From sequence record ON556632.1: DNA of 42,991 nt; one strand, 5' to 3'. Positions 37,961-38,061 of this stretch are shown here, piece after piece. Each line of letters starts with the position of its first letter. Within the stretch, counting starts at the first letter, position 1. Source of the stretch: Escherichia phage hz69. Both the position numbers and the translations under genes were made by a program. The notes beneath the pieces are model-generated. The model was not told the DNA's origin, made no database searches, and saw nothing but the letters and a program-made list of their open reading frames with translations.

Positions 37961-37991
37961 AAAAAAAAATCCCGGCTGGGTCAGGGCCGGG
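37961..37991 (-). terminator. strong Rho-independent terminator (CCCGGC ... GCCGGG followed by nine T on - strand)
   Basis: Plus strand reads AAAAAAAAA-TCCCGGCTGGGTCAGGGCCGGGA. Confidence 0.85.
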
Positions 37992-38026
37992 ATAAAACTG
38001 GAGAGCAGAGGGATGGAACAGGAGGT
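37962..38026 (-). ncRNA. candidate small RNA (about 65 nt) between tandem terminators
   Basis: TTGACA (revcomp 38056-38061) - 17 bp - GATACT (revcomp 38033-38038), then a CU-rich 65-nt segment ending in the 37961-37991 terminator; no ORF. Confidence 0.35.
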
Positions 38027-38061
38027 GATTTAAGTATCGTCTGATTGGTATCAGGTGTCAA

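Follow-up and report, generated by a model that had tools for sequence, protein, structure and literature searches.

On the minus strand of Escherichia phage hz69 (sequence record ON556632.1), downstream of the lysis genes, lie a promoter, a short noncoding segment, and a terminator that we describe here as a candidate small RNA gene. The window, by which we mean the whole stretch of DNA analyzed, is 42,991 bp long and approximates a complete genome of a Kagunavirus (Guernseyvirinae). Over the 901 bp queried, identity is 96.5% to Kagunavirus PDP21P8 and about 91% to the K1-specific coliphages K1G and K1ind, and the gene order is that of the curated relatives Schulenburg and Jersey. Along the minus strand, small early genes, two holins, and the endolysin (38225-38761) precede the element, and about 12 small genes, then the terminase, head, tail, and tailspike genes, lie 3' of it. 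Replication genes are on the plus strand, and no tRNA genes were found in the 42,991-bp window.

The element opens a cassette with the order P1, RNA, T1, P2, and leader (Table 1). Judged by comparison with relatives, the cassette ends on the right with the segment holding the P2 leader and the first open reading frame (ORF), where a mosaic early operon starts.

Table 1. Features of the cassette and its left border
Feature	Position	Strand	Basis or detail
T0 intrinsic terminator, closing the lysis operon	38067..38097	-	Hairpin AAACCCGGA/UCCGGGUUU, then UAUUUU
P1 -35 hexamer TTGACA	38056..38061	-	Promoter scan
P1 -10 hexamer GATACT	38033..38038	-	Promoter scan; 17 bp from -35
Predicted small RNA, ~65 nt	37961..38026	-	Inferred +1 at A38026 to end of U tract
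Pyrimidine-rich 5' arm, predicted unstructured, putative seed	37994..38026	-	Composition and folds
T1 terminator: 8-bp G+C-rich hairpin 37993-37969 and 9-U tract 37969-37961	37961..37993	-	
P2 promoter TTGACT-17-TATATT of the downstream small-gene operon, same cassette	37910..37938	-	Promoter scan
Near-invariant P2 leader (…CGACAACGAGAACGGAGUAGAGAAG) and first ORF (25 aa, Stp-like)	37802..37903	-	Leader diversity 0.079

Promoter and ends of the predicted transcript

P1 matches the promoter consensus at 10 of 12 positions, in agreement with a preliminary description of this locus that had called it near consensus. Sites with at least 10/12 matches number nine in the window, compared to 6.0 ± 2.7 in shuffled sequences, and because such matches are common by chance, the case for P1 rests on the comparison with relatives presented below. 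P1 shares its hexamers, spacing, and C-A start context with lambda PL, a very strong promoter. Transcription is predicted to begin at A38026, the 7th nucleotide past the -10 hexamer, which from its position and context we infer to be the 5' end of the RNA. From there to the end of the T run is 66 nt; the preliminary description had set this border at 37962, clipping one T. It had also described the -35 hexamer as overlapping the U tract of the upstream terminator, and here our coordinates differ, as T0 adjoins P1 with a 5-nt gap (ACCAA) between them.

The preliminary description had the segment end in the strongest terminator of the window, with nine U's, and this terminator with its nine U's is present. 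The T1 hairpin has a predicted stability of -13.8 kcal/mol, and its T9 tail is the longest T run on either strand of the window, the next longest being 7. Other clear terminators on the minus strand end in short, interrupted runs, such as TTTCTN/TTTCTG. A simple terminator scan missed T1, probably because its loop is 9 nt and the limit of the scan was 8.

Conservation of the cassette

A 231-bp query over the region matched 439 phage records, essentially all of them from Kagunavirus and Jerseyvirus, which infect E. coli and Salmonella. Since about 442 records carry the small terminase of the window at a coverage of at least 80%, the two genera have the cassette almost without exception. In most Kagunavirus genomes the match begins at the first base of the P1 -35 hexamer; in Jersey-type Salmonella phages it has ~75% identity and runs from the -10 hexamer or the RNA body onward. 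A covariance model of the element finds exactly one copy per genome, scoring 93 bits in the window, and 5,426 complete E. coli genomes contain no match to it.

Forty-four distinct versions of the cassette, assembled from IMG/VR and GenBank, show which parts of P1 are held constant. The -35 hexamer is TTGACA in 43 of the 44 (TTGACG in the exception), the -10 hexamer is GATACT in 43 (CATACT in the exception), and the spacing is 17 in all 44, while 16 of the 17 spacer columns vary. Nucleotide diversity is 0.008 in the hexamers and 0.27 in the spacer, and the difference in variable columns has a Fisher P value of 3e-5, uncorrected for phylogeny. P2 behaves in the same way, with hexamers invariant in 44/44 and a variable spacer (diversity of 0.000 versus 0.27). 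On these substitution patterns, P1 is under the same purifying selection as the neighboring operon promoter. The predicted start site is likewise maintained, the 7th nucleotide after the -10 hexamer being a purine preceded by a pyrimidine in every distinct cassette. When metagenomes were scanned with P2 and the 3' half of T1 as the only anchors, 36 further copies and one unrelated match were returned; none of the 36 had lost P1, the worst cases being -35 hexamers with a single mismatch (TTGGCA and TTAACA).

Homology starts exactly at the -35 hexamer, beside 10 distinct 10-nt left-flank strings that represent several unrelated contexts, among them endolysin C termini whose stop codon overlaps or abuts the hexamer, other genes, and T0. 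Mosaic genes flank the cassette, implying frequent recombination here, and together with the number of near-consensus sites in the genome, this would suit a reading in which P1 is fortuitous, without a function of its own, and a passenger of an essential terminator-promoter junction homogenized by recombination. Hitchhiking of this kind is unlikely because it would conserve spacer and hexamers alike, rather than leave near-invariant hexamers around a variable spacer, and one clade with a wholly unrelated spacer still has TTGACA-17-CATACT. We regard this reading as highly improbable.

T0 belongs to a structured insert of ~165 nt that is present in only a subset of relatives: the left flank on the T0 side occurs in 8 of the 44 distinct cassettes, and only 41 of the 439 records cover it. 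Because T0 separates the element from the lysis mRNA, RNA in this window can come only from P1. In most relatives the element would also be the 3' end of the lysis mRNA, an arrangement that invites a cis-acting interpretation, in which the motifs complementary to Shine-Dalgarno (SD) sequences belong to a 3' untranslated region (UTR) and set the timing of lysis by folding back in cis on the ribosome-binding sites of the holin or endolysin, in the way that the icaR 3' UTR of S. aureus folds back. Such a role would fit the endolysin stop codon that overlaps or directly precedes the -35 hexamer in most distinct cassettes (CGGTGAAAGG and G/ACAAAGTAGG), as well as the Jersey-type phages, whose only terminator after the lysis genes is T1. 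It does not fit the window and the eight T0-bearing cassettes, where the lysis mRNA ends first and P1, the RNA, and T1 are still fully conserved, nor the relatives with upstream genes other than the endolysin, and it leaves the selection on the P1 hexamers unexplained. We therefore judge a cis-acting 3' UTR to be very unlikely. Type I small RNAs derived from 3' UTRs, such as DapZ and MicL, offer a related comparison: as in most relatives of hz69, the upstream gene bears the promoter at its extreme end, and its mRNA and the small RNA share a terminator. The window departs from this type in that T0 and the 165-nt insert uncouple the two, and the element is on a phage rather than a chromosome.

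Composition, structure, and coding potential of the RNA

The first 33 nt of the predicted RNA comprise 14 C, 13 U, 3 G, and 3 A and are therefore 82% pyrimidine, upholding the earlier remark that the 5' part is pyrimidine rich; the same remark called it complementary to SD-like sequences, and ACCUCCU lies inside the RNA. This arm is one of two such pyrimidine-rich sense-strand stretches in the minus-strand gene block. It carries the motifs CUCCUG (38024-38019), CAUCCCUCU (38015-38007), and GCUCUCC (38006-38000), followed by a U-rich UUUUAU (37997-37992) that partly overlaps the foot of the hairpin. All 33 nt are unpaired in the minimum-free-energy, centroid, and 24-sequence consensus folds, and the T1 hairpin is the sole predicted structure of the RNA. 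An alternative antiterminator fold was considered and rejected, as by reading of the sequence it would have only 5 bp (AUCCC/GGGAU) compared to the 8-bp stem.

Among relatives the RNA is 62 to 71 nt long (mode, 65), with U tails of U7 to U14. The consensus fold of 24 distinct RNA sequences is the terminator hairpin alone, with the arm unpaired throughout; 8 of the 24 have a compensatory change in the hairpin from C-G to U-A, and Jersey-type hairpins have two additional A-U pairs. CUCCU (CTCCT in DNA) is kept in all 44 distinct cassettes, and ATCCCTCT in the DNA (AUCCCUCU in the RNA) is kept in 39. The U-rich stretch always abuts the stem, as UUUUAU in the Kagunavirus type, UUUAU in the Jersey type, and UUUCU in the L049/L071 type. 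Within Kagunavirus, diversity is 0.072 in the RNA body, compared to 0.133 and 0.228 in the promoter spacers.

No ATG, GTG, or TTG occurs in the 66 nt of the predicted RNA, confirming the segment as free of ORFs, and the opposite strand encodes nothing. Element indels between genera are of -1, +3, and -4 nt, which excludes a conserved reading frame. A 26-aa minus-strand ORF was rejected, since it starts at the TTG of the -35 hexamer, upstream of the transcript, and no frame is conserved; a sporadic TTG or ATG appears in eight variants, without an SD sequence. The plus-strand mini-ORF MEQEVI (followed by a stop codon) is not conserved and runs on in Salmonella phage Shelanagig. In the GenBank records examined, the element is either unannotated or covered by a hypothetical ORF. 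One such ORF is Shelanagig gp59 (L003 1075-1278), a "hypothetical protein" that extends from inside the endolysin across P1, the RNA, and T1; given the noncoding pattern of conservation, it is probably a false gene call.

That the element is a stand-alone, gene-like unit, as first proposed, is supported by the selection on its promoter, the sharp boundary at the -35 hexamer, the compensatory change and unusually long U tail of the terminator, the lack of a conserved reading frame, its single copy, and its presence in nearly the entire subfamily.

A proposed base-pairing RNA

The predicted RNA begins with a CU-rich arm that has three conserved motifs, and after this a U-rich stretch leads into a single G+C-rich hairpin with a long U tail behind it. 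In bacterial small RNAs, a U-rich stretch before the hairpin together with a poly(U) tail constitutes an Hfq-binding module (PMC12205990, citing Ishikawa 2012 and Otaka 2011), and C-rich seeds typically target SD sequences (PMC12205990). Because of this combination of Hfq module and seed, the usual targets of C-rich seeds, and a similarity to the Rfam family RF02278 discussed below, we favor the interpretation that the element is a single-copy gene for a noncoding, Hfq-binding RNA of ~65 nt that base pairs with ribosome-binding sites, to which we assign a probability of roughly 0.5. Its parts differ in strength. Conservation of promoter and terminator makes it likely that a discrete RNA is made, and by analogy with the known modules it probably binds Hfq. 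Whether it then acts in trans against ribosome-binding sites is close to an even bet, leaning if anything slightly toward no.

In the model, host sigma-70 RNA polymerase would read the gene from the strong, unregulated-looking P1 from the start of infection, and T1 would act as an efficient intrinsic terminator to end the transcript. The CU-rich arm, whose complement reads like SD-N8/9-AUG-codons, would pair with purine-rich ribosome-binding sites across the SD region and start codon of host mRNAs, phage mRNAs, or both, blocking translation initiation early in infection.

Enterobacterial Hfq-dependent anti-SD small RNAs such as CyaR are the nearest design. Like the phage element, they have their own sigma-70 promoter, a length of 60 to 90 nt, a C/U-rich unstructured seed, and a G+C-rich terminator hairpin that is preceded by a U-rich stretch and followed by a long poly(U) tail. 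The CyaR seed contains CACCUCCU. This RNA pairs with the SD sequence of hdeD (PMC12205990). Unlike these RNAs, the phage element shows no sequence homology or Rfam match to them, is encoded by strictly virulent phages, and has its putative seed at the extreme 5' end, with ~30 nt and three CU motifs.

No Rfam family reached its gathering score anywhere in the window. The best similarity was to RF02278, at 25 bits (E = 0.003 on 231 nt) for a gathering threshold of 50 bits, in an alignment that rests on the terminator and UGCUCUCC. Membership in a known RNA family was rejected on these grounds, as the weak matches fall below gathering score and depend on the terminator; the sar covariance model matches only T0, and weakly (13 bits). 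[quoted passage not shown] These double-hairpin RNAs of Betaproteobacteria share a CU-rich unpaired region with the phage RNA, which has one hairpin rather than two, half the gathering score, and a different host range and phylum. RF02278 is an analogue, and the phage RNA is not a member.

Among phage RNAs, P22 sar, lambda oop, and P1/P7 c4 are 65 to 80 nt long, have their own promoter and an intrinsic terminator, and block ribosome-binding sites (PMC12197685, Table 1). The element shares with them its phage origin, size, promoter, and intrinsic terminator. In contrast, those RNAs are antisense or near-cis regulators of temperate phages with a defined overlapping target, and here no complementary phage site survives comparison across genera. 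Temperate phages and prophages supply nearly all of the phage small RNAs cataloged so far (PMC12197685, Table 1), and a 2025 review catalog contains none from this group. We found no annotation or publication of the element.

If expressed, it would be a small RNA that strictly virulent siphoviruses have kept throughout an entire subfamily, whose members include K1-capsule-specific coliphages and Jersey-like Salmonella phages that are much studied for therapy and food safety. With 65 nt, one promoter, and one terminator, it would offer a compact, tractable system for early RNA-level manipulation of the host, and the strong promoter/terminator pair would be useful for phage engineering. In addition, accessory and counterdefense genes are swapped behind the cassette, which marks a recombination joint.

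Candidate targets and evidence against pairing

Several results weigh against the favored interpretation, beginning with its targets. Target prediction had been suggested for both host and phage ribosome-binding sites, and on the phage side no target was identified, since all three candidate sites failed their controls, either against shuffled sequences or across genera. At the nearest candidate, where the first P2 gene binds ribosomes, the RNA can form 8 to 9 bp with GGAGUAGAG, no better than shuffles; pairing between the RNA and the P2 leader in 43 cassettes, compared to dinucleotide-shuffled arms, gave a mean z of -0.5 and a median P of 0.28. The best helix in the genome is one of 17 bp between the 3' arm of the RNA and a site in the helicase mRNA, GGAACTGGAGAGCGGAG (11155-11171, plus strand), reached by 6 of 400 shuffles (P of about 0.015). 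This pairing is kept in Schulenburg; in Jersey the site is identical and the Jersey RNA is not complementary to it, a mismatch that leaves the helicase site as either a chance match or a target specific to Kagunavirus. In Jersey itself, the gp54 ribosome-binding site contains a 12-nt perfect complement to the Jersey RNA, and the homologous site in the window (ATG at 42484) pairs over only 6 bp.

The remaining points concern conservation and precedent. Between genera, divergence of the RNA body (0.23) is about that of the spacers (0.27). Metagenome variant L111 lacks the first CU motif, and L107 lacks motifs 2 and 3. T1 and a CU-rich stretch would also be needed merely to end lysis transcripts and insulate P2. 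Finally, we found no RNA sequencing, Northern blotting, or small-RNA work in the literature on Kagunavirus and Jerseyvirus, in which statements about promoters and terminators are in silico only.

On the host side, an antisense copy of a host gene was rejected, as a comparison that covered matches of at least 20 nt to the complement of the arm found none in the 5,426 E. coli genomes beyond one at chance level (E = 6).

A bolder form of the base-pairing model is that the RNA serves as a general shutoff of host translation. Made abundantly from a promoter of lambda PL strength in the first minutes of infection, it would mask strong SD sequences, saturate Hfq, or both, with the ACCUCCU 5' end (the sequence of the 16S rRNA 3' end) and the two further CU motifs covering host mRNAs. 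This RNA-based shutoff would be encoded beside an early counterdefense operon that starts here with a peptide like T4 Stp. ATCACCTCCT matches 10 nt of the 3' end of 16S rRNA, and only ACCUCCU of this lies inside the predicted RNA. The 10-nt identity is specific to Kagunavirus, with 7 nt inside the RNA, another observation that counts against a pairing function. We consider general shutoff unlikely.

An abundant RNA could also act as a protein decoy, titrating Hfq, Rho, or ribosomal protein S1 and so disabling RNA-based regulation or termination in the host. Rho and S1 prefer unstructured pyrimidine-rich RNA, and in the 33-nt arm C outnumbers G by 14 to 3; the strong promoter, long U tail, U-rich stretch before the hairpin, and lack of a conserved complementary target among the phage candidates would all be expected of a decoy. 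The argument is purely compositional, however, and what is conserved includes specific motifs (CUCCU and AUCCCUCU), not composition alone, while a 33-nt arm is short compared to the 60- to 80-nt site of Rho. A decoy function is, to our minds, quite unlikely.

A possible control device with the RNA as a by-product

The principal competitor to a base-pairing RNA is a transcription-control device, in which P1 is constitutive, T1 halts transcription 30 bp before P2, and the RNA is a by-product. Variants include read-through on demand into the small-gene and morphogenesis operons by antitermination, as at lambda PR'-tR'; loading or recycling of RNA polymerase near P2; and insulation of P2. The layout does resemble lambda PR', 6S RNA, and tR', from which StxS of Stx phages arises by termination at tR': a strong constitutive promoter and a short terminated RNA are followed by a same-strand block of ~26 kb, with further terminators at about 36021, 32654, 27969, 23896, and 21082. 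T1 and P2, moreover, are always found together, at a fixed spacing of 21 to 22 nt. As it happens, StxS is itself listed as a phage small RNA and is a precedent for a trans-acting regulator (PMC12197685).

The likeness to lambda breaks down in the details. Because the strong P2 directly follows T1, expression of the operon needs no read-through, and the lysis genes lie upstream of the element, not downstream. No TANNNT pause element was found in the 72 nt past the -10 hexamer, so that the sigma-dependent pause is missing, and no recognizable Q gene was seen among those checked. Nor did we find a put- or nut-like structure (boxA and boxB, or two put stem-loops), the only hairpin being the terminator, and a boxA-like UGCUCU is not kept, its G being changed to A in 8/44 distinct cassettes. 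The annotations of Schulenburg and Jersey include no antiterminator. Among 20 small proteins encoded around the element, the PHROG matches of 17 were confined to families of unknown function, 2 had no match, and 1 is Stp-like. Conservation of the CU motifs also exceeds what a mere spacer needs. A control device with an incidental RNA accordingly appears rather unlikely.

Neighboring elements

P2 is annotated as a promoter in phage Jersey, and it resembles rrn promoters in its core and A/T-rich upstream region. Its pattern also matched unrelated IMG/VR contigs (L047, L051, L055, L060, L069, L070, and L073), which carry promoters of the rRNA-operon type followed by boxA (GCTCTTTAACAA). These were discarded as an analogous cassette, being bacterial rRNA promoters with boxA and having no P1-like promoter.

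The first ORF after P2 (37802-37876, minus strand) encodes a 25-aa peptide that matches phrog_6763 over its full length (E = 5e-20), annotated as "activator of host PrrC lysyl-tRNA endonuclease," the family of the T4 Stp antirestriction peptide. Because only some relatives have this ORF, others fusing the invariant leader directly to the next gene (MKITDI…), its position looks like a slot for accessory or counterdefense genes.

Upstream of P1, the noncoding ~165-nt insert (38062-38224, minus strand) between the endolysin stop codon and P1 occurs in only about 41 of the 439 records. It folds with -59.3 kcal/mol (z = -3.0) into a long hairpin, closed by a 10-bp inverted repeat (38104-38113/38158-38167), and then T0; on this predicted fold it could be a second structured RNA or a 3' UTR.

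An insertion hot spot lies between the P1 start site and the first CU motif. Contig L093 (oriented 1175-1277) and the isolate phage EC3-1 have a 102-nt insert there with perfect 14-bp terminal inverted repeats, and L107 and L123 have an unrelated insert of ~80 nt that is structured and whose closing stems covary. Both inserts are rare and neither has an Rfam match; phages bearing them would make RNAs of 130 to 170 nt with the same 3' part.

Two further sites in the window have a promoter with a nearby hairpin. At about 36039-35975 (minus strand), a terminator (AGCCCTCTACGGAGGGCT and TTTCTG) closes the P2 small-gene unit; directly after it, and shortly before the small terminase gene, come a promoter-like TGTACA-18-TATAAT and a hairpin (GACGCGTAGGGCGCGTC), and this site may be the start of a late or packaging unit. 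At 5454-5482 (plus strand), the strong promoter TTGACT-17-TATAGT has the same start context as P1, TAAATCAC, and between it and the gene at 5540 is a hairpin without a U tract, CCGGGCAGCTCCCGG. Jersey has kept this arrangement (32953, minus strand), which may reflect a common promoter design or a 5' leader with structure.

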